Shown piece by piece: positions 5,985 through 37,599 of a stretch of DNA of 64,000 nt. Under the pieces are notes generated by a model. That model was not told where the DNA came from and ran no database searches. It worked only from the letters and a program-made list of their open reading frames with translations. The first letter of the stretch is position 1, and each line of letters starts with the position of its first letter. The stretch is from a virus. Lineage: Duplodnaviria > Heunggongvirae > Uroviricota > Caudoviricetes. The stretch is from positions 16,273 to 80,272 of IMG/VR virus record IMGVR_UViG_3300037400_003300. The stretch is one strand, 5' to 3'. The translations under genes and the position numbers were made by a program.

Positions 5985-6421
5985 TGACTAATTATAATGA
6001 TCTGAACATTTTTGAGAAAGCTAATCTTGCCAGGGATTTAAACATGGATACTGTTGACCAAGTAGCTGCAATGATAAATGCTAAGACAACCAATAGAAGT
6101 CAAAGAAGAAGGCTTGAAAAATCCTTAAAGAGAGTAAATACAATTTACAGTCACGTTCAAAATAGAGTTGATAGAAGCGCTTATACACAGTATCAAAAAG
6201 CAGTTGACGAAAATTTTCTTCACTTCTACTCTATTCTAGCTCTTACGATGAAAGAAGATTATCACTGGAGAGAAGATGAAACACACGATCAGATAAGCTC
6301 ACTTTTGGAAAAAGTAGATAATAAGATAAATAAGTATGCTGAAAAGGGATATAATACAAAAGATTTAGTTAAACTTTTAGATGAAACATGTGATATTAAA
6401 CTCATAGCTGATACTCATTAA
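5981..6421 (+). CDS. hypothetical protein
   Basis: ORF track. Confidence 0.45.
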   Translation: MMTNYNDLNIFEKANLARDLNMDTVDQVAAMINAKTTNRSQRRRLEKSLKRVNTIYSHVQNRVDRSAYTQYQKAVDENFLHFYSILALTMKEDYHWREDETHDQISSLLEKVDNKINKYAEKGYNTKDLVKLLDETCDIKLIADTH

Positions 6422-6426
6422 AAAAA

Positions 6427-6483
6427 TTTTCGGAATCCGAAATTATTGACAAAACTTTAACAGTTTTTTCGGAATCCGAAAAT
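6427..6483. promoter_or_regulatory. two copies of 17-bp palindrome TTTTCGGAATCCGAAAA (parS-like / ParB operator) downstream of parB
   Basis: perfect palindromes at ~6427-6443 and ~6466-6482; third copy at 8581. Confidence 0.5.
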
Positions 6484-6503
6484 TTTTAAGTGGAGGCAAA
6501 TTA

Positions 6504-7757: not shown

Positions 7758-8559
7758 TTACCTCCAAAAGTTCAGCTGCAAATTCTCTATAATCGTCAGC
7801 ACCATTATTTGAGCCGTAGTTATATATTGAGCCTTTTGATAAAGCAACTTTCTTATCTGCAAGCTTAGTAACATCGGATATGTTCATAAAGCCTTGTACT
7901 TTCGGAATTGCCGCTGAGTCACGAATCGTTGTATTGAATGTATGAACAATAGATTCGTCAAGTCCTTTAAATTGTTCCTTGATATTACTCTGAACGGATT
8001 TTTTTCGTTCATATTTCGTGAGAAGAACACCATAAACTTCAAGTGAAGGATTAAGTTCTTCTTGAATTTCACCAATATTCTCTAAAAGAGATGCAAGACC
8101 ATCAATAGCAAAGGTCTCCGGTTCCATTGGAATAATTATGCCATTGGATGCAGTTAATACATTATCCATCATTATGCCTGCTGAGGGACCAGAATCCATG
8201 ACTATAACATCATAATCTTTTTCAATCGGCATGATTGCATTTTTTAATTTAGTTTCCCTTGCTTTAGCATTGATAAGTTCACCGATTGCTAATTTGAGTT
8301 TATTATTTGCCGGGGCTATGTCACCCATAGCATTGCCTTTAACTATGATCTCTGAAAGAGGAACTTTTTTTAAGATAGCATCATAGATAGTAAGCTCGTT
8401 TTCATTTACTTGAAAAACTTTACTAGAATTTCCCTGGGGATCGAAGTCGATAAGTAAGACCTTATAACCAATTTGAGTTAATGCGTCTGTAAGACAGATA
8501 GCAGTAGTTGTTTTACCTACACCACCCTTTTGATTTACAATTCCAATTTTAATAGCCAT
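7741..8559 (-). CDS. parA: ParA/Soj-type partition ATPase
   Basis: deviant Walker A KGGVGKTTT at N-terminus. Confidence 0.85.
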   Translation of the reverse strand: MAIKIGIVNQKGGVGKTTTAICLTDALTQIGYKVLLIDFDPQGNSSKVFQVNENELTIYDAILKKVPLSEIIVKGNAMGDIAPANNKLKLAIGELINAKARETKLKNAIMPIEKDYDVIVMDSGPSAGIMMDNVLTASNGIIIPMEPETFAIDGLASLLENIGEIQEELNPSLEVYGVLLTKYERKKSVQSNIKEQFKGLDESIVHTFNTTIRDSAAIPKVQGFMNISDVTKLADKKVALSKGSIYNYGSNNGADDYREFAAELLEVIGSGK

Positions 8560-8580
8560 TTTTTAACCATCCTCTCTTAA

Positions 8581-8597
8581 TTTTCGGAATCCGAAAA
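8581..8597. promoter_or_regulatory. third TTTTCGGAATCCGAAAA palindrome in parA promoter region
   Basis: identical palindrome 22 bp upstream of parA start codon. Confidence 0.45.
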
Positions 8598-8628
8598 TAT
8601 TGATAAATATTTAACAATGTTTATATAA

Positions 8629-8819: not shown

Positions 8820-9077
8820 CATACCTCCATAATAGATTTTCAATTAAAAATCGAATATGCAAATTATACACATTAAAAATACATTTGGCAAGAGTTAATT
8901 TTATTTTGGCAACAACAATCCCTTTTTTGTTGTTGTTTATAAAAGAGTAAATTAATAGATAAAGTATATTAATAATAGATACGTATATTAATAAATATAA
9001 TATATAACAACAATATTCTTTTATTAATTAGGGAAACAAGAAATGGCTTAAATACTGGGTTTGAGGCGCGTTAGTGT

Positions 9078-9244
9078 GTGCAAATATGGGAGTAATTGCG
9101 TGCAAATATGGGAATAATTGCGTCTAAATATGGGAGTAATTGTGTGCAAATAGCGGATTTTTCCAAAAAATAAATTGTGTATTAAAAGCGGAAAAGTTGT
9201 GTGCAAATATGGGAGTAATTGTGTGCAAATTTGGGAGCGGTGAA
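9078..9244. repeat. iterons: 4 tandem + 2 further 22-bp repeats GTGCAAATATGGGAGTAATTG(C/T)
   Basis: direct repeats at 9078, 9100, 9122, 9144 (partial), 9201, 9223; AT-rich surroundings; upstream of rep. Confidence 0.7.
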
Positions 9245-9546
9245 TAGTGATTTTGGTAAAATGCGTACAAAAAGCGGATATGGGTAAAATTACGGCAATT
9301 TTTGTGCATAATACCAAATAAAATATTAATTTGCGATAACCATATTACAATAAAACAACTATAAATCGAATTGTCAAAACATTTAAACCGCATATCTGTG
9401 GGATAAATTAATCATGAACAAAAAGAGGGTGGCAATTTTTGTAAATTGTGCATAAAAAGCGGAAATTTATATTGTAATTCATAATTTTTTATGATAAATT
9501 TGTAATTAAGTGCACAAAAAGAGTAATTTAAGTAATAAGGGAATTA

Positions 9547-10767
9547 ATGAAAAAAAGTAACAACGATTGGCTAATTAAAGTTTATTTTACGAAAAGCAAT
9601 AATCTAATCACATCAAAAAGCCGAATGACAATTATCGGAAGGAAGGTATTAGATGCTGCGATTATGAATGTCCGGGAGACATATGATGAGTATGGGAATC
9701 CTATAATAAAAGCAGACATCGATGGACAGGAACTAAAGAAATTCATTGGAAGAGATTATAACTCAATATATGACACAGTAAAAAGCCTGATTAAACCTAA
9801 ATCACAGAAAGGGGCCGATGCATTAAAACCATCTCTTCTTGATTGGAAAGTCATTATAGCCGATGACGATAGACAACAGATCATTGGAATAAATGTTATC
9901 ACATTAGCGAAGTATACTAATGGAAAATTATCTATAGTTTTTAATAACGCTTTAAAGCAAAATCTTATTGGGCTAAAGAAGAATTATACTATGCTCAATA
10001 GGGATATAATCTCCAAATTTTCAAGTAATTATTCATATCAGCTCTACCAGATTTTCAAAAAGACAATTGATAAAGAATTAAGCAGATTAAAAGAAGATGG
10101 GATTGATAATGGCAATCATCCATTTGAGCTTATTTTTGACATAATTGATCTTAAAGTTCAGCTTGGAGTAATAGAAGCAAGCGAAAACGACATTTTATAT
10201 AAAGCAATAATGAATAATAATGTCTGCACCTATGAAGAGGTTATCAGGATTGATGACGATGAACTTGTAGAAAGACTTACAGAAAGTAGGAACTTCAGAA
10301 GATATGCTGTAGAAAAAGCAAAAAAAGAGATAAATGAAATCTCTGACATAAAGATGGATTATAAGCCGATATACGGAGGCAAAGGCGGAAAGACGGTAGG
10401 CTTTAAATTTTTCATTCAGTATAAAGAAATTGAAAAGGAAAAAGAAGAAAAAGAGCCTGACGAAGTAGATATATTTGAATTTATTGATAAGGTCCGGGAG
10501 ATAATAAAAGAGCCTGTTTTAAGCAGTAAAGAGATAAAGAGTATATCGGATGCAGCTGGGTATGACCTTGATAAGATTAAAAAAGCTTATAACGTATATC
10601 AGCAACAAGACAATGTAAGAAATGTTCCTGGATTTATCATAGATGCGATTAAAAATGATTATAAGGAACTTCCAGGAAAGAAAAAATCACCTGCTCATTT
10701 TGGCATGGAAAGGGAATATACACCGGAATTTTTTAGCGAACTTGAAAAAAGACTTGTAGAAAATTAA
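9547..10767 (+). CDS. rep: iteron-type plasmid replication initiator (Rep_3/RepA-like)
   Basis: N-terminus NNLITSKSRMTIIGRKVLDAAIMNV resembles the Rep_3 N-terminal pattern; sits next to the iterons. Confidence 0.6.
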   Translation: MKKSNNDWLIKVYFTKSNNLITSKSRMTIIGRKVLDAAIMNVRETYDEYGNPIIKADIDGQELKKFIGRDYNSIYDTVKSLIKPKSQKGADALKPSLLDWKVIIADDDRQQIIGINVITLAKYTNGKLSIVFNNALKQNLIGLKKNYTMLNRDIISKFSSNYSYQLYQIFKKTIDKELSRLKEDGIDNGNHPFELIFDIIDLKVQLGVIEASENDILYKAIMNNNVCTYEEVIRIDDDELVERLTESRNFRRYAVEKAKKEINEISDIKMDYKPIYGGKGGKTVGFKFFIQYKEIEKEKEEKEPDEVDIFEFIDKVREIIKEPVLSSKEIKSISDAAGYDLDKIKKAYNVYQQQDNVRNVPGFIIDAIKNDYKELPGKKKSPAHFGMEREYTPEFFSELEKRLVEN

Positions 10768-15254: not shown

Positions 15255-15576
15255 TCAAATAGGACAACGTATCAAGTATTTGTTAATCCATAATAGAATG
15301 AACCAAAGGGACCTTGCAGATAAAGCAGGCATTACGTATACATCTTTATCTAGGTATATTAACGGCGAGCGCACTCCGAACAGTAAAATCTTGGCAAAGA
15401 TTGCTACTGCGCTTAACATAGATGCAAACTTTTTACTTGGAATAAATAAAGACATAGAAGATCCGGAGAAAGATTTTTATAAGGCCCAAAGATTAACGGC
15501 AAGAAGTGCTGATAAATGGACTAAGAAACAGAAAGCAGAATTAATCCTTGCGATAATGGGAGTTAATAATGATTAA
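15226..15576 (+). CDS. XRE-family helix-turn-helix transcriptional regulator
   Basis: IGQRIKYLLIHNRMNQRDLADKAGITYTSLSRYINGERTP HTH_3 pattern; stop overlaps tnpB-like start. Confidence 0.6.
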   Translation: MKSLENTPNNQIGQRIKYLLIHNRMNQRDLADKAGITYTSLSRYINGERTPNSKILAKIATALNIDANFLLGINKDIEDPEKDFYKAQRLTARSADKWTKKQKAELILAIMGVNND

Positions 15577-16735
15577 ATCAATCAAAGTAATGCTACTTCC
15601 TAATAATTTTCAAAAAACAAGGTTTCATCAACACGCGGGAGCAGCAAGATTTCTTTATAACTGGGCACTTGCAAAAGAAGAAGAGAATTACGAAGCAGGC
15701 GGAAAGTTTATTTCTTATTATGAACTTGCAAAAGAGCTTACAGAGATTAAGAAAACAGATGAATATGCATGGCTAAATGATATATCTGCTTGTACTTGTC
15801 AGGCTGCGATTAAAGATGCTTGTGACGCTTATAATAATTTCTTTAAAAAACGAGCCAGGCATCCAAAATTCAAATCAAAGAATAAATCGGCCCCTAGTTT
15901 TGCACAAACAGATCAGGCTATAGAGTTTACTTCTACACATGTTAGACTTAGCAGTTTATCTAAAAGTCTTAAAAGGAATAGAAAAAAACTAAACTGGGTA
16001 AGGCTTGCCGAACATGGCAAGATACCAATAAATGTAAAGCATAGCAATCCAAGGATAACTTTTGATGGCATAAATTGGTGGATTAGTGTAGGAATAGACT
16101 ATCCGGAAAATGATGTTAAATTATCTGAGGAGGGATTAGGTGTTGATCTGGGAATAAGGAACCTTGCTGTATGTTCTGATGATAACATTTATCCTAACAT
16201 CAATAAGACCAAGGCGATCAAAGATTTAGAGAAAAGAAAACGAAGATTGCAACGAAGTATATCCAGGAAATATGAGATGAACAAAAAGGGGGATGAATTT
16301 GTTAAGACAAAAAATATAATAAAAGATGAGAAAAAGTTATTAAAGATGCATCAAAGGTTGAGTAATATCAGGAAAAATTATCTGCATCATACATCCAAAG
16401 AGATTGTCGGAAAGAATCCTAAATTTATTTGCATTGATGATCTTAATATTCAAAGCATGATGAAAAACAAGTATCTTGCAAAAGCTTTTCAAGAACAGTC
16501 TCTTTACGAATTTAGCAGGCAGCTTGAATATAAGAGCAATTTTAAAGGAATTAAATTTATACGAGCAGATAGGGACTATCCATCATCAAAGAAATGTAGC
16601 ATTTGTGGAAGGATAAAGAAGAATTTAAAGCCTTATCAAAAGTTATATAAGTGTGAATGTGGAAATGTAATTGATATTCATAAGCAAGCTGCATTAAATC
16701 TTAAATCTTATGGTGAAGATATTATTGCAGAATAA
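15569..16735 (+). CDS. tnpB: TnpB-like (IS200/IS605 OrfB family) RuvC-fold protein; Cas12/TldR-like candidate
   Basis: OrfB N-terminus; RuvC-I GVDLGIRNLAV (D193); RuvC-II ICIDDLNIQSM (D290 in place of the canonical E); zinc finger CSICG...CECG; RuvC-III region DIHKQAALNL (H371 in place of D). No tnpA nearby. Confidence 0.8.
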   Translation: MIKSIKVMLLPNNFQKTRFHQHAGAARFLYNWALAKEEENYEAGGKFISYYELAKELTEIKKTDEYAWLNDISACTCQAAIKDACDAYNNFFKKRARHPKFKSKNKSAPSFAQTDQAIEFTSTHVRLSSLSKSLKRNRKKLNWVRLAEHGKIPINVKHSNPRITFDGINWWISVGIDYPENDVKLSEEGLGVDLGIRNLAVCSDDNIYPNINKTKAIKDLEKRKRRLQRSISRKYEMNKKGDEFVKTKNIIKDEKKLLKMHQRLSNIRKNYLHHTSKEIVGKNPKFICIDDLNIQSMMKNKYLAKAFQEQSLYEFSRQLEYKSNFKGIKFIRADRDYPSSKKCSICGRIKKNLKPYQKLYKCECGNVIDIHKQAALNLKSYGEDIIAE

Positions 16736-16910
16736 TAATATTGTACCGGAAGCTGGTCCGGGAATTTACGCCTACGGAGTGTACTTGAACTTGTTAGTAG
16801 ACAGCACCACCGTCGAAAGCATACACGATGAAGTAGGAATGGAACATATAAGTATATCTTATTATAAGTTTTCAGCCGGGAGTAATCCCTTGCATCTTAA
16901 TAATTTGACC
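16736..16910 (+). other. leader / possible scaffold-RNA region between the tnpB-like gene and the array
   Basis: non-coding; CCGGAAGCTGGTCCGG and CAGCCGGGAGTAATCCC hairpin potential. Confidence 0.3.
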
Positions 16911-17338
16911 TTTTAGAAGTATGTAATTTTGCATAGATGTAAAGCCTGGCACTAAAGAAAGACATAGAGGTATGTCTTTTAGAAGTATGTAATTTTGCAT
17001 AGGTGTAAAGCACAGCTTTCAGACATATCTTTATAGCCAAAACTTTTAGAAGTATGTAATTTTGCATAGATGTAAAGCTAGACATGCTGAGATAGTTTGC
17101 TGTGATTACTTTTAGAAGTATGCAATTTTGCATAGGTGCAAAGCTACTGTGATGAAGACTACGTTGCTTTTAACTAGAAGTATGTAATTTTGCATAGGTG
17201 TAAAGCACCATCTTTCCATCAGCATATCCATCGCCTCTTTTAGAAGTATTCAATTTTGCATAGGTGTAAAGCTGATTTCATAAAAAAGACATATGAGGAT
17301 TTCTTTTAGAAGTATGCTTTTCCATGTAGATGCAAAGC
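16911..17338 (+). CRISPR. CRISPR-like array: 7 repeats of 35 nt (TTTTAGAAGTATGTAATTTTGCATAGGTGTAAAGC) with 6 spacers of 23-32 nt
   Basis: repeats at ~16911, 16977, 17044, 17110, 17168, 17238, 17304; internal hairpin UAUGUAA-UU-UUGCAUA with a compensatory C/G change in repeats 4/6; period ~66 nt. Confidence 0.55.
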
Positions 17339-17835
17339 GGGCCACATCGCATCACGATTTAAAGATATGCAATATTACATAGATGCAAAGCTGGCAGTAT
17401 CTTATAAGAAGCTATTTAAACTTCTAAAGGTATCTAAATTTGCATGGATGCAAAGCGTTTACGATATTGGAAGGGAATTAGTTTGCATTGATGCAAAGCA
17501 GCAAATAATTCTGATGTAAAGCCTACGTTCTCATGACAAGAGAAATCAATTATTACTTCTAAATAATTGCAAAGCAAATATGGTTATATTTTTAATGCAA
17601 AGCAAATGTATTTATGTTTTTGATGCAAAGCCAGATCGTTTTTTGGGTTGATAATATTTTTAGAAGCTTGACAAACCATACACCAAACTCATTAAAGCAA
17701 GCTTCTTTAAATTTATCAAGATGCAAAGCGACGGATAGATACATTGATATGAAAGGTCAATAGCAAAGTGAAGAATGTGTTTGAAGAAGAAGCAAAGCGG
17801 GCGCGAGATGATTTTCTAAAGGTGTAAAGCTAAGG
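17339..17835 (+). repeat. degenerate distal repeat relics of the array
   Basis: more than 10 units ending ...GATGCAAAGC / GTAAAGC with decaying similarity. Confidence 0.5.
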
Positions 17836-18264: not shown

Positions 18265-18377
18265 TCAGCAAGATAGTGTTCAAGATATGCAATGTTTAAC
18301 TGTGTAAAATATGCTACTATTATTTCAGGTGGTAGCGGTTCCCTTGATAGTAATTGATAGGGAGGAACGGCATCGAT

Positions 18378-18494
18378 ATGGATTATATCAAGTTAGTAAC
18401 AGCTATTGTAGCAGTGATTAACTGCTTGATTAACATTATCGAGCTTGTTCTCAAATTTATAGAGAATAAGAAAAATAATAAAAACCGCTCCTGA
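18378..18494 (+). CDS. 38-aa hydrophobic peptide MDYIKLVTAIVAVINCLINIIELVLKFIENKKNNKNRS
   Basis: GGGAGG RBS; conserved in copy 2; basic C-terminus. Confidence 0.4.
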   Translation: MDYIKLVTAIVAVINCLINIIELVLKFIENKKNNKNRS

Positions 18495-18516
18495 CCTGCG
18501 AAGTCGAGCGGTTTTT
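18482..18516 (+). terminator. rho-independent terminator overlapping the peptide stop codon
   Basis: AACCGCTCCTGACCTGCGAAGTCGAGCGGTTTTT. Confidence 0.5.
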
Positions 18517-18601
18517 AAATTGACTTAACTTCAAGGGCATCGCTACCACTTGTTTAATCTATTATAACACGTAGTAATATTTTATCAACAGGAGAAAATT
18601 A

Positions 18602-18805
18602 ATGCCAAGAAGCGAAGCAAAAAGACGAGCTGATAATAAATACAATCTGGCTCATTATACGGTGCTTGGTTGCAAGATGAAGATAACAGAGGCAGAAGAG
18701 TTTAAAACGGCCTGCAAGGGCTCAGGAACAACCCCTAATGCTGTCTTTAGAAAAGCAATAGAAAACTTTATGAAGAATTATAATAGCGGGGTAAAAGATG
18801 TCTGA
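18602..18805 (+). CDS. small DNA-binding protein (RHH/excisionase-like) upstream of recombinase
   Basis: position and size; basic N-terminus. Confidence 0.35.
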   Translation: MPRSEAKRRADNKYNLAHYTVLGCKMKITEAEEFKTACKGSGTTPNAVFRKAIENFMKNYNSGVKDV

Positions 18806-19814
18806 GAATAAGAGTCAATACACTGATAAGATCAATAAGCTTTTAAATGAAATGCCTGATTTTGTTTCAGATTTTATTTATAACTTTGGCCGGGTTGAGA
18901 ACTATGCGACTAAACTTGAATATTGCCGGGACATAAAGATTTATCTTGAATTTATTGCTAATTATCTTAATGACAATTGCGAAAAGAGTATCAGGGAACT
19001 GTCAATAAAGGATGTTTCTAATATAGAGATCCTTGATATAAATAGATTTCTAACAACACTTTCAGGAAATCACAAGGAATCAACCGTAAAAAGGAAACGT
19101 GCCTCATTATCAAGTATGTACGGATTTTTTGTAGCTACAGGTAAAATGTCTCGCAATCCAATTGCAGCTACTAAGACAATAAAGGTTCCAAGTAAAGAGG
19201 TTGTTTATTTAACTAACGATGAACAACGGATATTTCTCAATACTGTAAGGCATGGAACTAAGCTTCGGGACTCAATTGCAAAGGTCCATTATATCTATGC
19301 TGATAGAGATTCGGCCATGTTTATATTACTTCTGGATACCGGCCTTCGTGTTTCCGAGATGCTTGATACGGATATTATTGATTATAATCTTGAAGAGTGC
19401 AGCGTTGTTGTTACAAGGAAAGGTGGCGATACTCAGATAGTATATTATTCCGATGAGTGCAGAGATTATCTTAAAAAATACTTTGATGCTCAAAAGGCTA
19501 AATATGGATTATCAGAAAAGAATTTAAAATTTCCCGCTTTCACTACTTCTACCGGCAATAGATTGGGAGTACGTGCGGTTGAGATCCTTGTAAAGAAATA
19601 TGTATCTGTATGCCTTCCGGACAAAACAAAGATAATATCACCACACAAATTAAGATCGAGTTTTGCTATGAGTTTCTATGCTGCAAGTGACAATGATATT
19701 CTACTTCTAAAAAAGAAAATGAACCATAAAAGCATACAGACAACAAACATATATGCAAAAGCCTCTGATACAGCCATGAAGGAATCAAGGTCATTGCTGC
19801 AGGGATTAAGATAA
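18798..19814 (+). CDS. tyrosine site-specific recombinase / integrase (XerC/D-like)
   Basis: LLLDTGLRVSE (R), HKLRSSFA (HxxR), TTNIYA (Y). Confidence 0.8.
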   Translation: MSENKSQYTDKINKLLNEMPDFVSDFIYNFGRVENYATKLEYCRDIKIYLEFIANYLNDNCEKSIRELSIKDVSNIEILDINRFLTTLSGNHKESTVKRKRASLSSMYGFFVATGKMSRNPIAATKTIKVPSKEVVYLTNDEQRIFLNTVRHGTKLRDSIAKVHYIYADRDSAMFILLLDTGLRVSEMLDTDIIDYNLEECSVVVTRKGGDTQIVYYSDECRDYLKKYFDAQKAKYGLSEKNLKFPAFTTSTGNRLGVRAVEILVKKYVSVCLPDKTKIISPHKLRSSFAMSFYAASDNDILLLKKKMNHKSIQTTNIYAKASDTAMKESRSLLQGLR

Positions 19815-19819
19815 AATAA

Positions 19820-19856
19820 AAGCTGCTTGAGTAAATCTCAAACAGCTTTTTATATT
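19820..19856. terminator. bidirectional terminator between convergent genes
   Basis: AGCTGCTTGAG-TAAAT-CTCAAACAGCT hairpin followed by a T-run. Confidence 0.45.
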
Positions 19857-20985
19857 AAACATATTGCTTCTCATGTTGATGACTTGCGATCACATTAGCA
19901 AGCCCGGCCTTATCAGAATCACTAACAAAACATCCCTGTGCACGTATTGGCTTGTTACCACCTTTTTTAATAAGCATATCGCCCCTTCCGAAAAGTTTTT
20001 CTGCACCTGTTTGATCTAAGATAATACGGGACTCCATAGAACTAGAAGTGTTAAGCGCAATTCTAAATGGGAAGTTAGCTTTAATAAGGCCCGTAACAAC
20101 GTCATGTCTAGGCGACTGAGTTCCTATGATAAGATGTATACCGCAGCCCCTTGCTTTCTGGGCAAGCCTTACAATGTATTCTTCAACCTCTCTGTTTTTC
20201 AGAATAAGATCGGCAAACTCGTCAATAATACATATTTCTCTTGATAATTCATGGCCTTTTGAATGGTATTCATCTATATCATCACAGCCATTTTTAGCAA
20301 GAAAAGCGTAGCGACTTTCCATAGAAGCACATAGCCTTGATAGAAGAGAATATGCTTCATGTTCATTACTAACAAGGTTGATATAGGTATCTTTATATTT
20401 ATTAAATTCAGTTCCCTTCATATCAATAACGTCAATGATATTACTTGTTACATCATTTGATCTTGACGTTGCATAAATGCTATGCATTAGAAGGGAAGCA
20501 AGTATAGAGTGGATAGTCTCAGATTTACCGCTTCCGGTTGTACCCGCTATTAGAATATGCGGGGCCTTGGCAATGTCTGTATAAACAGCTTTTCCATTAA
20601 GATCCTGGCCAAGTACAACGGAAGTCATACTTGTACTATCATGGAATTTATCTGTATATAGGCTGCCAAAAGGAATAACATTAAACGTCCCTTGTCTCTC
20701 AATAACAATTGTATCAGCAGTCTGATAGTAGGATATATTATCTGATCTAAGGGCGGCTGCAAGCGTAGATTCAATAGCTTTCTTGGCCCTGAGTATCTTT
20801 CCATTTAGTGTAACATCCAAAGGAAGGTTGATAATATACCTAACTACCTGTGCGCTTTCTTTAACGTCATTAACTCTAAGGCCATACTGTTCAAATATCC
20901 TGTTAATGTTTGAAATATCCTGTGATTTTAATGGATAGCTATTATTTGAACATACTGTATTTAGATTTAGATTTCTGAATGCCAT
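19855..20985 (-). CDS. FtsK/SpoIIIE-family DNA translocase ATPase
   Basis: Walker A GTTGSGKSE, Walker B ICIIDEFADL. Confidence 0.75.
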   Translation of the reverse strand: MAFRNLNLNTVCSNNSYPLKSQDISNINRIFEQYGLRVNDVKESAQVVRYIINLPLDVTLNGKILRAKKAIESTLAAALRSDNISYYQTADTIVIERQGTFNVIPFGSLYTDKFHDSTSMTSVVLGQDLNGKAVYTDIAKAPHILIAGTTGSGKSETIHSILASLLMHSIYATSRSNDVTSNIIDVIDMKGTEFNKYKDTYINLVSNEHEAYSLLSRLCASMESRYAFLAKNGCDDIDEYHSKGHELSREICIIDEFADLILKNREVEEYIVRLAQKARGCGIHLIIGTQSPRHDVVTGLIKANFPFRIALNTSSSMESRIILDQTGAEKLFGRGDMLIKKGGNKPIRAQGCFVSDSDKAGLANVIASHQHEKQYV

Positions 20986-29746: not shown

Positions 29747-30118
29747 ATGGCAGAGAAAAAGGTAATAGGAATAAAAGTTGGAGCAGAAGATTATAGAAGA
29801 TTAGAAATCATTGCAGACCGAGAGAACATGAGCATTTCAGCGATTTTAAAACTTTGTGTGAATGCAATTATCAATAATGAGATAGAGCTAGAGAAAGGTG
29901 AGCTAAAGCTAGGAGTTAACTACGTTTGCGAGGATTTAGACACACCATTTGGGGAGAAAGTAGAGCGAAAATTAAACAAACTACGTGAGAGGGAGTATCC
30001 GGAGTGGTATATCGAAGCGCTGAAAGAGCAGATGTTAACTAGCTTTGACGCACAAATAGAGATGTTACCGAAGAAATTCAACCCAAAAAGAATGCGAAGT
30101 GATGATTGGGGGTGCTGA
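29747..30118 (+). CDS. ribbon-helix-helix DNA-binding protein
   Basis: IGIKVGAEDYRRLEIIADRENMSISAILKLCV RHH pattern; AGGAGAGGGG RBS. Confidence 0.5.
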   Translation: MAEKKVIGIKVGAEDYRRLEIIADRENMSISAILKLCVNAIINNEIELEKGELKLGVNYVCEDLDTPFGEKVERKLNKLREREYPEWYIEALKEQMLTSFDAQIEMLPKKFNPKRMRSDDWGC

Positions 30119-30120
30119 AG

Positions 30121-30372
30121 ATGCCAACGAAAGATTCCATGATAAAGACCGCAAGGATCACGCAGGAAACCTGGAGAAAGATGGAAGCATACATGGAGAG
30201 GGAAGATGTGACCTTCTCAGGAGCAATAAGAAAGCTGGTCGAGGAAGCGGACATACCGAAGCAGCGTAGGGAGTTTGTAGACACGAAAGAGCTGGTAGAC
30301 CTCTGTGAAAGAAGGAATATCGAACCACAGACACTAATAGATGGGCTTGTAAGGGAGTTAAAGAGGGGATGA
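30121..30372 (+). CDS. ribbon-helix-helix DNA-binding protein
   Basis: KTARITQETWRKMEAYM...SGAIRKLVE. Confidence 0.5.
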   Translation: MPTKDSMIKTARITQETWRKMEAYMEREDVTFSGAIRKLVEEADIPKQRREFVDTKELVDLCERRNIEPQTLIDGLVRELKRG

Positions 30373-30539
30373 GTAGTAGTAAGACACAGACAAGAACCAT
30401 AAGGATAAAGAATGAGACAGCGGATTTCTTCAGAGACAAGCCACTTAACAAAGTAGTTGAGAACGTGCATGACCTGGCACTAAAGAAAGACATAGAGGTA
30501 TGTGAGAATGGGAAAATTTCTATACTCAGTGGACGGTGA
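30369..30539 (+). CDS. ribbon-helix-helix-like small protein (contains the protospacer)
   Basis: RTIRIKNETADFFRDKPLNKVVENVHDLALKK; hand-translated. Confidence 0.4.
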   Translation: MSSSKTQTRTIRIKNETADFFRDKPLNKVVENVHDLALKKDIEVCENGKISILSGR

Positions 30540-30864
30540 GCATTTTGAGGAACTTGGGCATGTATCGGATATAGAGCTTAGTGCTGAAGAGGAAGAGGTA
30601 GCCGAGAGATTTTTTACGCCAGATACGATTGAATTAACTATGCAAGCGCCAGAGTTAAATATGGACGGATTGGTTCGCAGCATGCTTGGCCAAAGTGCGT
30701 ATAACTCGATAAAACTTAGGCAAGACGGGTATTTAAGCCCTGAGAACGGGTGGTTCACACCAGTTGAGAGTCCGGCGATAAAACTTATTGAAAAAATAGA
30801 CAAAGAGAGGAGAAGGCATGACAAAGAAAGAGAGAGAAGCACTAAATCAGGCATTGAAGAATGA
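30502..30864 (+). CDS. hypothetical acidic protein (the gene whose RBS/start region matches spacer 1)
   Basis: ORF track; GTG 30502 or ATG 30508 start after AGAGG. Confidence 0.45.
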   Translation: MRMGKFLYSVDGEHFEELGHVSDIELSAEEEEVAERFFTPDTIELTMQAPELNMDGLVRSMLGQSAYNSIKLRQDGYLSPENGWFTPVESPAIKLIEKIDKERRRHDKERERSTKSGIEE

Positions 30865-31012
30865 GTTTTTAGATCAGGACGAAGCTGAGATGCGAAAAGG
30901 GTACAGAGAATTTGCAAGGCAGCTTCAATTAGCGCAGGAAGAAATGGGGCTTACAAGATATGAGGCAATAATATTCCTGTCAACCTTGATAGGGAATAGT
31001 ATGCATAAATGA
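30818..31012 (+). CDS. hypothetical protein
   Basis: ORF track. Confidence 0.35.
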   Translation: MTKKEREALNQALKNEFLDQDEAEMRKGYREFARQLQLAQEEMGLTRYEAIIFLSTLIGNSMHK

Positions 31013-32923: not shown

Positions 32924-34687
32924 ATGGCTTCTAATGACCTTATCAGAGCATTTGAAGGCTATAAAACATATTATGACAATCATGGCGCAGATGAAGCGCT
33001 TATAAATGCCTGTGTAGAAGCTGCAAAGACCGCTTTTTTTATTGAAAAAGATGAAAAATACGGGTTAGGCATTACAGGAACGACTAAAAACTACATAAAT
33101 GAGCTAGTTCTGACTAAGACTGGCGCGGGATTCTTTGATCTTGAGAGATATGCGATAGCAAATGATACAGAGTATACCATCATCAATACCGGTTACGACA
33201 TCTATAGGCTAGAGTCTTTCTCAAGATTTGAATCGTACATGCACTACATCGAAAGGGACAGGAGACAAGAAAAACGTTTTTACCTTCCGAGAAGATGTAC
33301 TTTAGGGATAGTAGCAAATGATATGCAGCGTTTGGAAGATGATGAACTTGATGTTTATGGACTTAGTTTACCATCAAGAACCGGTAAGAGTTCAATCTGT
33401 ATCTTCTTTCTTACATGGGTAGGAGTACGAAAACCAAACAGCCATAATGCGATGGGTGGGCATTCTGGACAGCTTGCAAAGAGATTCTACAGAGGTCTTG
33501 ATAACATAATCGAAACACCGGATTACCGATACGATGAAGTGTTTCATTTATGGAATCCTGAATACCGAGCAGTCTTACAGGCAAAATCATCAGATCCAGC
33601 AGAATTTACACTTAATCTGGGTTCACCTGATGAGTTTTCAACCTTTACATGCCGAGGAATAGACGGAACATGGACGGGTGCTATCGATGTATCTTCAGAT
33701 GGTTACTTATACGTGGATGACCTCATAAGAGACAGAGAACATTCACTTAGTCCATCACGAGTTGAAAATACTTATCAAGAGTATCAGAACAAGATGCTTG
33801 ACCGTATGAATGACGGTGCGAAAAAGATGCTTGTCGGTACTTTATGGACAGTAAATGATCCGCTTGAGCGTGAGAGAAAGGTAAATGATGGCAATCCAAG
33901 GGCATTGTTCAGGAAGATACCTGCTCTTAACGAAAATGATGAGAGTAATTTCCAATACACGGTCAAAGGATTTTCTACTGAGTATTACAAGAACATGCGA
34001 GACAGGCTTGATAAGGCTGAATGGATGGCAAAATTCCAGCAACAGCCATTTGTCAGAGAAGGTCTTACGTATCCTATCGAGGAACTGCGGTTTTTTGATG
34101 GATTTTTACCGGTTGGAAACTGTTCGACTATCGCACACATAGACGTTGCTTTTGGTGGTGGAGACAGGTTATCAATGCCGATATGTAAGGATTTTGGCGA
34201 AGAAAAGAAGTATATCGTGGGCTGGATACATGATAGCCGTTCACCAGGATTTACGGTTCCAAGAGTAGTTGATGCGATTGACAGATACTACATAACAAAG
34301 CTTTACATAGAGAAAAACTCAGGTGGACAGCTCTATGCAGATAAAGTCTCAGAAGAAATGAAGAACAGAGGAATAAACCACTGTAAGATTGAGCTTTATT
34401 CCGCACCTAATAAGATTTCAAAGAATGACAAGATAAGCGGATATTCAGATTATGTAAAACGCAATTTCTTGTTCTTATCGGCTAAAAGCCGTGATATTTA
34501 CGAGGAAGATATAGATTTTTATAAGCAAGATGCCGACTACCGCAAGGCATTGGACGAGATGACAACATTCAGTATTGAGGGAAAGGGAAAGCAGTTTGAT
34601 GATTCACCGGATTCCATCTCTTCACTTGCTATGAAGATGGATAACAGGCGGTCAACAAAAGCAAGGATAATGAGTTCACCATTATGA
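32924..34687 (+). CDS. terL: terminase large subunit
   Basis: Walker A-like LPSRTGKSS; VDDL; C-terminal nuclease-like IDVAFGGGDR; 587 aa. Confidence 0.8.
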   Translation: MASNDLIRAFEGYKTYYDNHGADEALINACVEAAKTAFFIEKDEKYGLGITGTTKNYINELVLTKTGAGFFDLERYAIANDTEYTIINTGYDIYRLESFSRFESYMHYIERDRRQEKRFYLPRRCTLGIVANDMQRLEDDELDVYGLSLPSRTGKSSICIFFLTWVGVRKPNSHNAMGGHSGQLAKRFYRGLDNIIETPDYRYDEVFHLWNPEYRAVLQAKSSDPAEFTLNLGSPDEFSTFTCRGIDGTWTGAIDVSSDGYLYVDDLIRDREHSLSPSRVENTYQEYQNKMLDRMNDGAKKMLVGTLWTVNDPLERERKVNDGNPRALFRKIPALNENDESNFQYTVKGFSTEYYKNMRDRLDKAEWMAKFQQQPFVREGLTYPIEELRFFDGFLPVGNCSTIAHIDVAFGGGDRLSMPICKDFGEEKKYIVGWIHDSRSPGFTVPRVVDAIDRYYITKLYIEKNSGGQLYADKVSEEMKNRGINHCKIELYSAPNKISKNDKISGYSDYVKRNFLFLSAKSRDIYEEDIDFYKQDADYRKALDEMTTFSIEGKGKQFDDSPDSISSLAMKMDNRRSTKARIMSSPL

Positions 34688-35624: not shown

Positions 35625-35652
35625 ATGTTGAATAAATTATCAATTTTGATAT

Positions 35653-35872
35653 AATAAAGAAGAGTGGTAGCGATACCCCTTGATTAAGCAAATAAAAAAG
35701 TCCGCTTAACTTGTGAGGTTAGGAGCGGTCTTTTTTATTGTTCTTTTTGTTCTTTAGAATATCGAACAATAGCCTTATGATATTCAATAGAAAATTGCAC
35801 AATGCAATAATCTCTGAGATAGTCATAGGCATCACGTTCCTTTCCCTTATATTTCAAGGGAAACCGCTACCA
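35653..35872 (-). mobile_element. MITE-like cassette copy 2 (inverted relative to copy 1)
   Basis: TIRs AGTGGTAGCGATACCCC / GGGAAACCGCTACCACT; the internal sequence is recognisably homologous to copy 1 (not scored). Confidence 0.5.
35717..35827 (-). CDS. 36-aa hydrophobic peptide MTISEIIALCNFLLNIIRLLFDILKNKKNNKKDRS
   Basis: homolog of the copy-1 peptide; terminator hairpin CCGCTCCTAACCTCACAAGTTAAGCGG downstream. Confidence 0.4.
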
Positions 35873-36048
35873 CTAAGAGATACTATACCACAGAAGCCCA
35901 ATAAAATAAACTTTATATAAAAATGTAGACTTTTTTATATAACTTTGGTTGTAAAATGGTAGTGTAAAATAATATAAACAGAGCCTATAGGGCATTTAAA
36001 ATACAGCAAGCCTTACCTTCGGGTGGGGCTTTTTTATATGGTGAAAAT

Positions 36049-37599
36049 ATGGGCGGTAGGAAAAAGATAATGACCGATGTTCCGGTCGTTACTGCTGAAA
36101 ATATAATATCGATTATTCAAAAAGCAATCGGAGACCATAAAGAAAACGCTGCTAAGATACAGGAATTATTTGATTTTGAAGAGGGCTTTCAGCCACTTCA
36201 AAGAGTGAAGGTGTATCGAAGCGATATTGATATAGATGTGACTGATAACGTAGCTAATGAGATTGTTGAGTTTAAAGTTGCTCTAAACTATGGAAATCCT
36301 ATTTCTTTTAAGAAACGTGGATCTGTAGATGGGATGATTGAAGCAATCGAGATGTGGAATGACCAGTATTTCCTTACGGATTCAGATTCAAGCAATCAGG
36401 AACTTGCAAGAGATTTTGAAATCTGCGGTATTGGAAATGTTTTTATTGATATAAATACTGATTATGAGGAAGGCGATTCTTACTACACAAGAACAATCTT
36501 AAATCCAAGGACTTCATTTGTTATTTACTCATCATATTACTATGACCGCAGACCGATGGTAGGTGTAACGTTCCGTAAAGATTCAGATGGAGTAACGCAT
36601 TACACGGCATTTTCTAAGGATTTCAGATTTGAGATAAAGTATTGGATAATCCAGAATCCGGGGAAAGAAGATGAACCGGTCTGGGCGCATGAGGATAGGA
36701 GTGGAGAAGTAAATCCACTTCATGCGATACCTATTATCGAATATTTTAGAAGTTATGACAGAATGGGATGCTTTGAAAGGCAGATTCCCGCAATGAACAA
36801 CCTTAACCTGCTTGTTTCTGACTTCTCGAATGACGTAGACCAGAACACACAGGTTGTATGGTGGGCAAATGATTGTGAGTTTGAGACCATACAGGTTGTA
36901 AATGAGGATGGGACTGTTACTGAGCAGGTAAAACATCCAAAATCTAACGAATGGCTTCAGACATTTACAACAAGAGATGGCAAGATACCGAAAGTTCAGC
37001 CACTTATCGTTAATTACGATTACGCGGGAATGCTGAATAATTATATGTCTCAGAGAGCATTGATACTCCAGAAGTGTAATGTGCCTCAGAGAAATGATAA
37101 TTCCGGAGGAAGCACAGGTGTTGCAATGAGTGATGCTACCGGATGGAGTGCAGCTGATATTGCGGCAAATAAAGAGGAAATGATTATCTCTAAGAGTATC
37201 AGACGGGAGATAAAAGTTATCTGTGCTGCGATAAGAGAAAGCGCATGTCCTTTGGACAGTCCACTTAGAAAGATTAAGCCATCCGATATTGAGCCAAGCA
37301 TAAAGAGACAGAAGAATTATGAACTTTCAGTAAAGACAACGGCAATATCTAATCTGATTAATATTGGATTCAGTCTTGAAGATACGCTTGATGCTGTACC
37401 ACTGTTTCCAGATCCGGCACAGGTTATTGAGCGAAGTAAAGAAGGTGTGGAAGCATATCAGAAAACAAAACTTAAGCAATCCGAAAAGAGTGAAGAAAAA
37501 GAAGCAACGCCCGGTTCAGACGATCCCATATATCAGATTGAGAACAGCCCTAATATAGATGGAATGAACACAGATAATGGCGAAGAGGATGAAAATTGA
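36049..37599 (+). CDS. portal protein
   Basis: 516 aa; position between terminase and head-morphogenesis genes. Confidence 0.65.
   Translation: MGGRKKIMTDVPVVTAENIISIIQKAIGDHKENAAKIQELFDFEEGFQPLQRVKVYRSDIDIDVTDNVANEIVEFKVALNYGNPISFKKRGSVDGMIEAIEMWNDQYFLTDSDSSNQELARDFEICGIGNVFIDINTDYEEGDSYYTRTILNPRTSFVIYSSYYYDRRPMVGVTFRKDSDGVTHYTAFSKDFRFEIKYWIIQNPGKEDEPVWAHEDRSGEVNPLHAIPIIEYFRSYDRMGCFERQIPAMNNLNLLVSDFSNDVDQNTQVVWWANDCEFETIQVVNEDGTVTEQVKHPKSNEWLQTFTTRDGKIPKVQPLIVNYDYAGMLNNYMSQRALILQKCNVPQRNDNSGGSTGVAMSDATGWSAADIAANKEEMIISKSIRREIKVICAAIRESACPLDSPLRKIKPSDIEPSIKRQKNYELSVKTTAISNLINIGFSLEDTLDAVPLFPDPAQVIERSKEGVEAYQKTKLKQSEKSEEKEATPGSDDPIYQIENSPNIDGMNTDNGEEDEN

Follow-up and report, generated by a model that had tools for sequence, protein, structure and literature searches.

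Paired inverted-repeat cassettes in a caudoviral genome look like type I toxin-antitoxin modules remotely related to the Hol_Tox peptides

The 64,000-nucleotide stretch analysed here (positions 16,273 to 80,272 of IMG/VR virus record IMGVR_UViG_3300037400_003300, Caudoviricetes; hereafter the window) carries two homologous, oppositely oriented cassettes of about 210-220 nt. With a probability of roughly 0.7 we propose that each of them is a self-contained type I toxin-antitoxin (TA)-like module, toxicity and both RNAs being predicted. Each cassette appears to be composed of two convergent transcription units, one for the mRNA of a hydrophobic peptide and one for a predicted antisense RNA of ~85 nt that would open with a near-copy of the 5' arm of this mRNA. 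Along with their relatives, the cassettes look like an undescribed RNA-controlled toxin-antitoxin family that is common in rumen Lachnospiraceae, their phages and plasmids. A previous interpretation made from the letters of the window alone (the sequence-only reading) had compared the peptide with type I toxin or small membrane peptide architectures, and this comparison is supported by the predicted convergent promoters, a predicted bidirectional terminator, an RNA helix joining 5' and 3' ends and an open reading frame (ORF) under coding constraint.

Copy 1 occupies positions 18328-18550 of the plus strand, just as had been given before, when the flanking pair G18328·T18550 is included; GTGGTAGCG spans 18329-18337 and is matched by its complement in 18541-18549. 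The minus strand carries copy 2 at 35664-35873, or at 35663-35874 counting a flanking A·T pair. Its locus had been recognised correctly, whereas the ends originally assigned to it (35653-35872) were about 10 nt too long at the 3' side and 1-2 nt short at the 5' side. GTGGTAGCG is present exactly four times in the window, and these four sites are the four cassette ends. The features of copy 1 are the following:

18296..18323, plus strand: predicted sense (peptide mRNA) promoter, TTAACT-16-TATTAT; the -10 element ends 5 nt before the 5' arm, a position conserved across the family
18328..18347, plus strand: 5' arm GGTGGTAGCGGTTCCCTTGA, the predicted mRNA 5' end; the entire arm pairs with the 3' arm
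within 18328..18347, plus strand: inner half of the 5' arm, GTTCCCTT, with the Shine-Dalgarno (SD) region as alternative partner
18359..18367, plus strand: purine-rich SD region AGGGAGGAA, pairing with the 5' arm in the leader-only fold
18378..18494, plus strand: ORF of 38 aa, MDYIKLVTAIVAVINCLINIIELVLKFIENKKNNKNRS (MDYIKLV...NKKNNKNRS), one hydrophobic helix and a basic tail
end of 18378..18494, plus strand: coding sequence of the tail and stop codons, coinciding with A-tract and left terminator arm
18479..18517, both strands: predicted bidirectional intrinsic terminator, TAAAAACCGCTC...GAGCGGTTTTTA
18531..18550, plus strand: 3' arm TCAAGGGCATCGCTACCACT, complementing the 5' arm; its other strand corresponds to the first ~20 nt of the predicted antisense RNA
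18561..18588, minus strand: predicted antisense promoter, TTGATA-16-TG-n-TATAAT, 11/12 match
18470..18554, minus strand: predicted antisense (antitoxin) RNA of ~85 nt, ends approximate

Copy 2 is laid out in the same manner:

35882..35910, minus strand: predicted sense promoter, TTTATT-17-TG-n-TATAGT; the -10 element ends 8 nt before the 5' arm
35854..35874, minus strand: 5' arm AGTGGTAGCGGTTTCCCTTGA
35837..35848, minus strand: SD region AAGGGAAAGGAA, paired with TTTCCCTT when the leader is folded alone
35719..35832, minus strand: ORF of 37 aa, MPMTISEIIALCNFLLNIIRLLFDILKNKKNNKKDRS (MPMTISE...KNKKNNKKDRS), or 35 aa from the second ATG
GTG 35835 and ATG 35826, minus strand: alternative starts of this ORF
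35691..35739, both strands: predicted bidirectional terminator
35663..35683, minus strand: 3' arm TCAAGGGGTATCGCTACCACT
35628..35655, plus strand: predicted antisense promoter, TTGAAT-16-TG-n-TATAAT
35661..35745, plus strand: predicted antisense RNA of ~85 nt, ends approximate

The description of the two units as homologous, each with inverted ends, a hydrophobic ORF (38 aa in copy 1, 37 or 35 aa in copy 2) and a GC-rich hairpin overlapping the stop codon, is borne out by reading and by alignment. A gap-permissive global alignment of the two copies contains 167 identical positions, or 75% relative to the longer copy (z = 16 when compared with shuffles), with identical stretches only ~20 nt long, and folding of the two units against shuffles yields z = -7.9 and -7.3. 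As DNA, the arms are complementary over 22 nt (86%) in copy 1 and 21 nt (86%) in copy 2 according to a repeat search; folded as RNA, the arms of either copy give a helix of 19-20 pairs in which there are one mismatch and one or two G·U pairs. The stop-codon hairpins (18479-18517 and 35691-35739) are predicted to act in both directions because T-runs are present on either side, that is an A-tract before and a T-tract after the stem. These elements double as coding sequence: the Lys/Asn-rich peptide tail is specified by the A-tract, and Arg-Ser-stop by the left arm of the stem.

Relatives were gathered by pattern scans and peptide searches, most of them with patterns containing the arm ends; chance matches of arm-to-arm patterns in GC-rich contigs were discarded by inspection, and 39 unique full-length copies were left after de-duplication. 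The sister phage IMGVR_UViG_3300037249_000806 (L001/L003) carries both copies. The family was also found in several further viral contigs, in many rumen-type metagenome contigs and in nine GTDB genomes, all of which belong to rumen Lachnospiraceae and include a Pseudobutyrivibrio metagenome-assembled genome (MAG) and two isolates, Butyrivibrio sp. M55 (contig NZ_FPCD01000018.1) and Butyrivibrio sp. INlla16 (NZ_FMYB01000072.1). Copies beyond the window, whose existence the sequence-only reading had left to be checked, are thus at hand, while blastn searches with both cassettes returned no match in GenBank phages or PLSDB plasmids, and Rfam gave none at the gathering threshold or at E <= 10. The family is small: among 1.84 billion representatives it makes up 46 clusters (50% identity). 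A contig of 38.9 kb (JAFYHY010000145.1; L034 and L040) contains both cassettes, is collinear with the window and is binned in a MAG labelled Aeriscardovia sp. (Actinomycetota); since every other carrier is a member of the Lachnospiraceae, it is probably a mis-binned phage contig. Two weak matches of the family covariance model described below (L019 5145-5219 and L040 4198-4339) cover just an A-tract and terminator and were rejected as generic terminators.

The layout of sense promoter, arms, ORF, terminator and antisense promoter is kept in all 38 relatives that have enough flank. Predicted antisense promoters match the consensus well (-10 at 5.4/6, -35 at 4.6/6, TG in 31 of 38) and end 8-13 nt past the 3' arm, whereas the predicted sense promoters, ending ~8 nt before the 5' arm, are weaker (-10 at 4.9/6, -35 at 3.8/6). 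An antisense gene consisting of a strong convergent promoter and a terminator usable in that direction is accordingly predicted in 38 of 38 copies. The 3' arm begins about 15-20 nt past the terminator. Outside the window, the family is found next to rep3 and toprim genes (Butyrivibrio sp. M55), parA, integrase, resolvase, tnpB and phage genes, and also in plain chromosomal intergenic regions, namely near genes for ABC-F/GreA, PriA, BlaR/BlaI and ATP-binding cassette (ABC) transporters.

Several lines of evidence suggest that the arms act as the two halves of an RNA helix. A covariance model was built from the family and used for realignment of 38 copies; the resulting alignment (A5) replaces a MAFFT alignment (A2) that was too ragged in the inner stem and the terminator. 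On A5, the closing helix comprises 16 pairs that are 99.0% paired over 38 relatives, six of them having changed on both sides. None of 500 shuffles reaches the observed covariation, and slid controls are 40-60% paired. Covariation is also seen at 8 of the 11 pairs of the terminator helix. Where only one side of an arm pair has changed, the result is G·U in 9 columns (53 cells) as opposed to A·C in 2 columns (2 cells), and it is for this reason that the arms are read as an RNA helix and not as DNA repeats, for which A·C would equal G·U. Furthermore, the arm duplex is steadier on the sense strand in 38 of the 39 copies (-31.1 vs -26.4 kcal/mol). Locus L075, retrieved by an ORF-plus-terminator pattern that does not contain the arms, has the complementary ends AGGGUAGCAA.../...UUGCUACCUU, and loci L077, L085 and L086, with wholly different 5' and 3' sequences, nevertheless retain 25-35 bp of pairing, which is once more better on the sense strand. 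These four loci and L088, a bona fide Hol_Tox locus, were found without arm patterns and therefore lend independent support to the arm helix. From these comparisons, the 5' and 3' arms are predicted to form a conserved, covarying RNA helix of 19-21 bp on the sense strand.

This has consequences for the ends of the cassettes, which had been taken for 16-bp terminal inverted repeats (TIRs). Their complementarity holds, but they extend over 19-20 RNA pairs, and they do not behave as TIRs: in every copy the arms begin at the predicted +1 of two convergent promoters that lie outside them, they pair as RNA and they lack target-site duplications. A miniature inverted-repeat transposable element (MITE), that is a non-autonomous element bounded by TIRs, or a mobile terminator module had been put forward. 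A short unit with inverted ends, the occurrence of several copies per genome or contig in differing contexts, and homology between differently placed copies that starts within a few nucleotides of the arms would all be in line with a MITE-like element. However, a check for target-site duplications revealed none in the 39 copies: direct repeats lying no more than 3 nt from the ends reach 0-4 nt at most and are inconsistent between copies. In addition, the copies are not near-identical but diverged, with peptides down to ~20-30% identity, no conserved transposase is found nearby, the unit holds an ORF under selection and promoters outside the presumed TIRs, and arm variation obeys the wobble rules of RNA. 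A MITE-like nature is consequently very improbable in our view. We give even less credence to the idea that the inverted copies are recombination sites by which the adjacent integrase or homologous recombination would invert or excise the 17-kb block between them. It is true that the copies are mutually inverted, that a tyrosine recombinase gene follows copy 1 at a distance of 250 nt and that the copies bracket a block containing genes for this integrase (18798-19814), FtsK (19855-20985) and the terminase large subunit (32924-34687), as had been described. Nevertheless, related contigs are collinear on both sides of both copies without any inverted arrangement, the sister phage L001 keeps cassette 1 although it has no integrase, stretches of identity between the copies measure just ~20 nt, and the family consists mostly of single copies unrelated to integrases. 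The bracketing appears incidental, because members of the family also occur singly, in plasmids and at ordinary chromosomal intergenic sites.

The ORF is intact in all 39 copies (27-40 aa) and preceded by an SD at the proper place, while the other two frames are never open. Differences at codon positions 1, 2 and 3 amount to 36, 19 and 46%. The best 19-aa hydropathy window scores 1.75-2.82, the tail has a net charge of +1 to +6, and the peptides align without gaps from residue ~5 through the hydrophobic core to the tail, even at identities below 30% and down to ~20%. All of this points to a small (<60 aa), hydrophobic, membrane-directed peptide under coding selection. The same observations bear on the alternative of a structured non-coding RNA with a fortuitous ORF, which could draw on the very strong folding z-scores and the conservation of ends and terminator. 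The preservation of the reading frame and its SD, the constant closure of the other frames, the dominance of third-position variation, the gap-free peptide alignment and the lack of any Rfam match make this explanation very unlikely.

Searches with the peptides in Pfam, NCBIfam, PHROGs and PADLOC yielded nothing above threshold. Weak single-sequence matches concern Hol_Tox (E = 0.61), DinQ-like (0.0028), YonT (0.29) and PepG1 (0.19), all of them sub-threshold and all of them type I toxins; weak PHROG matches are to one holin and one membrane moron. The Fst toxin (Pfam Fst_toxin) did not match the peptide at E <= 10. As to Hol_Tox (PF16935), the gathering cut-off of 23.3 bits is not reached by copy 2 (10.4 bits, E = 0.61), and copy 1 has no match. 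Within the family, 11 of 29 members have sub-threshold matches to PF16935, with a best E-value of 4.5e-4, and comparison of the family profile with Hol_Tox by hhalign gives a probability of 95% (E = 3.6e-8, 27 columns). In fact, a profile of distant members retrieves PF16935 proteins that bear the NCBI name 'putative holin-like toxin'. On the basis of these profile comparisons we regard the cassette peptide as a remote relative of Hol_Tox. The genuine PF16935 locus L088 has the same RNA layout: its ends are GUGG...CCAC, its inner stem is CCCCUUG/CAAGGGG, and it has a convergent promoter as well as an anti-SD hairpin.

The 5' arm also has a second potential partner. A hairpin between its inner, C-rich half and the purine-rich SD is present in the leader-only minimum free energy (MFE) structure of 38 of the 39 copies and is likewise predicted for an mRNA ending at the terminator, while the closing 5'-3' helix is part of the full-length MFE structure in 34 of 39. 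When the antisense footprint is blocked, the arm-SD hairpin is back in 37 of 39 copies, compared to 6 of 39 when it is free. Distant relatives preserve this choice of partners in other sequences: CCUCC is paired with GGAGG in L077 and L086, where the 3' arm includes another GGAGG, and UCCCCU with AGGGGGA in L088. A comparison of cognate and non-cognate arm-SD pairs in a fixed window is noisy (p ~0.02). Conserved complementarity is what these folds suggest for the arm and the SD, and nothing further is claimed for this pairing.

A possible mode of action can be sketched from these folds. Transcription from a weak sigma-70-type promoter would begin with the first base of the 5' arm and give the mRNA, and the stronger convergent promoter past the 3' arm would yield the ~85-nt antisense RNA that ends at the shared terminator. 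In a nascent or terminator-ended mRNA, the 5' arm would sequester the SD and prevent translation. In a read-through transcript, the end-to-end helix (~-31 kcal/mol) would capture the 5' arm, shield both RNA ends and take the arm off the SD. The antisense RNA, a perfect complement of 3' arm, spacer and terminator, could then displace the 5' arm, which would snap back onto the SD, and the antisense duplex would probably also be marked for RNase III. If the element were lost or antisense synthesis stopped, a stable mRNA would outlive the antisense RNA, the membrane peptide would be made and would harm the cell, the outcome being post-segregational killing or stabilisation of a phage-plasmid with two diverged copies. 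We offer this specific switch, comprising SD sequestration, arm capture upon read-through, antisense displacement and probable duplex cleavage, as a tentative model with somewhat less than even odds. A more far-reaching version is a three-way strand-displacement switch, in which the SD (off) and the 3' arm would compete for the 5' arm, and the 3' arm would in turn be contested by the 5' arm and its antisense mimic; here, an antitoxin RNA would imitate the mRNA 5' end, only read-through transcripts would be translatable and the same logic would apply across Hol_Tox (PF16935) of Firmicutes. This must be considered speculative and rather doubtful.

A number of points weigh against the interpretation as a TA module and, in particular, against the switch. 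The peptides lie below the Pfam and NCBIfam thresholds of every toxin family. The conservation of the outer stem is partly by construction, because most copies were retrieved with arm-end patterns and A5 was fitted to the model, and figures such as 38 of 39 as well as the shuffle statistics overstate independence since the sequences are related. The promoters, the transcript ends and the existence of the antisense RNA have been predicted from sequence. Judging from its T-runs, the terminator should also work well on sense transcripts (T residues after the stem number ~7/10 in the sense and 7.9 in the antisense direction, A5 columns), so that most sense transcripts may stop before the 3' arm; the proposed switch therefore needs read-through transcripts. 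The arm-SD hairpin is 87% paired and displays no significant covariation, and in a column test the +1 register pairs equally well. Finally, the SD purines are paired in full-length MFE structures, with other partners, as often as in the leader-only fold, and a free SD in the closed form is thus conjectural.

There are alternatives for both the mechanism and the function of the cassettes. In a mechanism resembling that of par/Fst, the mRNA would always end at the shared terminator, short of the 3' arm, and the antisense RNA would first contact the terminator stem-loops and then block the ribosome-binding site (RBS) region in trans with its 5' end; the repeat would then be inverted because both RNAs need the same anti-SD sequence. 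The terminator is indeed symmetric and T-rich in both directions, and pairing of the antisense 5' end with the RBS region averages -13.1 kcal/mol, compared to -9.4 ± 2.9 for shuffles. Moreover, the convergent RNAs of pAD1 par share a terminator and their 5'-end repeats pair to block the ribosome (PMC4147584). In 31 of 38 copies, however, the antisense 5' end pairs with the RBS worse than the cis arm does, differing at the U-run beside the SD. Conservation and covariation extend to the outer 9-10 nt of the arms, which are hardly complementary to the RBS (for instance GCGG/UCGC is replaced by GCAA/UUGC in L075 and L081), and arms that never pair would not be expected to show more G·U than A·C on the sense strand. 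This mechanism is thus conceivable but on the unlikely side. As regards function, the peptide could be a non-toxic small membrane protein of a phage or plasmid, such as a holin- or antiholin-type lysis protein or a superinfection-exclusion or defence factor, that is tuned by an antisense RNA and does not mediate addiction. Its sole named relatives are 'putative holin-like' (PF16935), the weak PHROG matches are to a holin and a membrane moron, the window is of phage(-plasmid) character and toxicity is a prediction. Against this stands that neither copy adjoins endolysin or lysis genes, the neighbours being the integrase gene, small genes of no known function and the portal gene, and that linkage to lysis genes was not found at the window copies or at nine other loci. 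Many copies reside in chromosomal intergenic regions (GreA, PriA, ABC transporters) or beside rep3 and parA, and the predicted multi-layer repression, the disruption of an ORF by an insertion sequence (IS) and the antisense-only remnants described below are typical of toxic genes. A non-toxic role consequently appears unlikely.

Decayed copies were indeed encountered. A cassette-1-type copy (L020 1181-1332/L015 1-2028, IMGVR_UViG_3300028797_000118) has its ORF split by a ~2-kb IS200/IS605 element encoding TnpA and TnpB, which sits directly after TTAC and has subterminal hairpins at either end. Of three 5'-truncated remnants (L069 3167-3306, L033 3516-3587, L035 3726-3831), only terminator, 3' arm and antisense promoter are left. 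In L078 4959-5140, promoter, 5' arm, ORF and terminator are present without 3' arm and antisense promoter. Such decay, through interruption of the ORF by an IS and through loss of all but the antisense side, is typical of TA loci. An addiction role of the cassettes would follow from analogy; the presence of two diverged copies fits post-segregational killing, and phage exclusion would be equally possible.

Taken as TA-like modules, the cassettes appear to be a novel form, clearly delimited by computation, of an already known type of system, namely a remote Hol_Tox branch with an unusual arrangement of arms, terminator and antisense RNA. With the Hol_Tox proteins of Firmicutes (PF16935, TCDB 1.E.42) they share single-helix peptides of ~30 aa with a core consisting of ...G, a hydrophobic run, IGLVYKI and a Lys-rich tail. 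The N-termini and tails (NKKNNKNRS) of the window peptides differ and the similarity stays below the Pfam threshold. In the literature searched, Hol_Tox figures as an annotation label only, and RNA regulation is not described. In the par system (Fst/RNA I-RNA II) of Enterococcus faecalis plasmid pAD1, the SD of RNA I is covered by a 5' stem-loop, and its 5' end is shielded by a helix. The convergent toxin mRNA and antitoxin RNA with one bidirectional terminator, as predicted here, resemble par. Repeats located at the 5' ends of both par RNAs help to block the ribosome (PMC4147584). In the DNA these are direct repeats (DRa/DRb) and render the RNAs complementary, whereas those of the cassettes are inverted, such that the RNAs share sequence. 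The complement is instead located in the mRNA's own 3' arm past the terminator, and a Pfam match to Fst is lacking.

Antisense RNAs that overlap the 3' part of a toxin mRNA are also found in bsrG/SR4, txpA/RatA and yonT/SR6 from prophage regions of Bacillus subtilis. In bsrG/SR4, SR4 binds at the 3' end of the bsrG mRNA and lengthens the SD helix from 4 to 8 bp (PMC3834814), and this remodelling has the same logic as the proposed switch by arm release. The toxins of this group are unrelated to the cassette peptides (E = 0.29 for YonT), its terminators are separate, its overlaps measure ~120 nt and, unlike the cassettes, it has neither an end-to-end mRNA helix nor mimicry of the 5' arm. A long-distance 5'-3' helix in the full-length toxin mRNA and competing pairings around the SD are hallmarks of hok/sok of plasmid R1 and aapA1/isoA1 of Helicobacter, in which the helix locks the inactive form, 3' trimming activates the mRNA and the antisense RNA targets the 5' region; plasmid addiction results from a stable mRNA opposed to an unstable antisense RNA. 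In the cassettes, on the contrary, the antisense RNA would cover the 3' arm and the 5'-3' helix would compete with SD sequestration. A mok-like leader ORF and an Rfam match (E <= 10) were not found, and the predicted antisense promoter is situated at the 3' end. Type I TA systems of Clostridioides difficile stabilise prophages, and systems such as CD0977.1-RCd11 resemble the cassettes in having small membrane toxins, Lys-rich tails, cis-antisense RNAs and a host from the Clostridia (PMC7699646). Sequence relation to the cassettes is not detectable. To our knowledge, the combination of arms and shared terminator has not been reported for type I TA systems of C. difficile.

The window itself encodes a Rep3-type initiator (9547-10767), with six iteron-like repeats of 22 bp (TGTGTGCAAATATGGGAGTAAT) upstream at 9053-9259, as well as FtsK, a tyrosine recombinase, terminase (32924-34687), portal (36049-37599) and tail proteins. 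Because iterons and rep3 occur alongside terminase, portal and tail genes, the window looks like a phage-plasmid-like element. The sister phage L001 has 7877-7912 in place of 18774-19845 of the window and hence no tyrosine recombinase gene, while cassette, ftsK and the TnpB array are kept. This array is a CRISPR-like (clustered regularly interspaced short palindromic repeats) array at 16894-17500 with ~10 repeats of 36 nt (CTTTTAGAAGTATGTAATTTTGCATAGATGTAAAGC) and spacers of 30 nt. It is accompanied by a gene for a TnpB-like protein of 388 aa (15569-16735; HTH_OrfB_IS605, OrfB_IS605 and Cas12f1-like TNB) and, 3' of this gene, by a RAGATH-18 RNA (16771-16839, 64.7 bits). RAGATH-18-derived RNAs serve as guides of IS607 TnpB, with a single guide each and no array (PMC11061315). 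Array and TnpB are conserved in the related contigs L001, L040 and L041. The first spacer, CTGGCACTAAAGAAAGACATAGAGGTATGT (16946-16975), has an exact match in the window at 30474-30503, in a short gap between the minus-strand ORFs 30078-30470 and 30480-30917, and could be a self-targeting or regulatory guide, or the target could be part of a separate inserted element. A palindromic box, AATTTTCGGAATCCGAAAAT, is present three times (6418-6487, 8572-8622), two of the boxes forming an inverted pair of 32 nt and the third lying 2.1 kb away; these look like operator sites for a regulator.

In the literature searched, type I TA systems are not described for rumen Lachnospiraceae and their phage-plasmids, and for Butyrivibrio they are mentioned at the level of annotation only. 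If our interpretation is true, an RNA-regulated toxin family would be added for rumen Lachnospiraceae (Butyrivibrio, Pseudobutyrivibrio) and their phage-plasmids, and its design would be unusual, with an antisense RNA that mimics the mRNA 5' end and a terminator inside a long-range helix. Cassettes that look TIR-bounded can be RNA modules with convergent promoters, which should serve as a warning in annotation, and the covariance model would annotate both the mRNA structure and an antisense gene that has been missed. Such modules would help to explain the stability of mobile elements in the rumen and might be developed into tools for counter-selection or plasmid stabilisation in genetically difficult rumen bacteria. 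The uncharacterised Pfam label Hol_Tox would be tied to a concrete RNA architecture and, if this were true of all PF16935 members, the annotation 'putative holin-like' would give way to a large, structurally defined superfamily of type I toxin-antitoxin systems.

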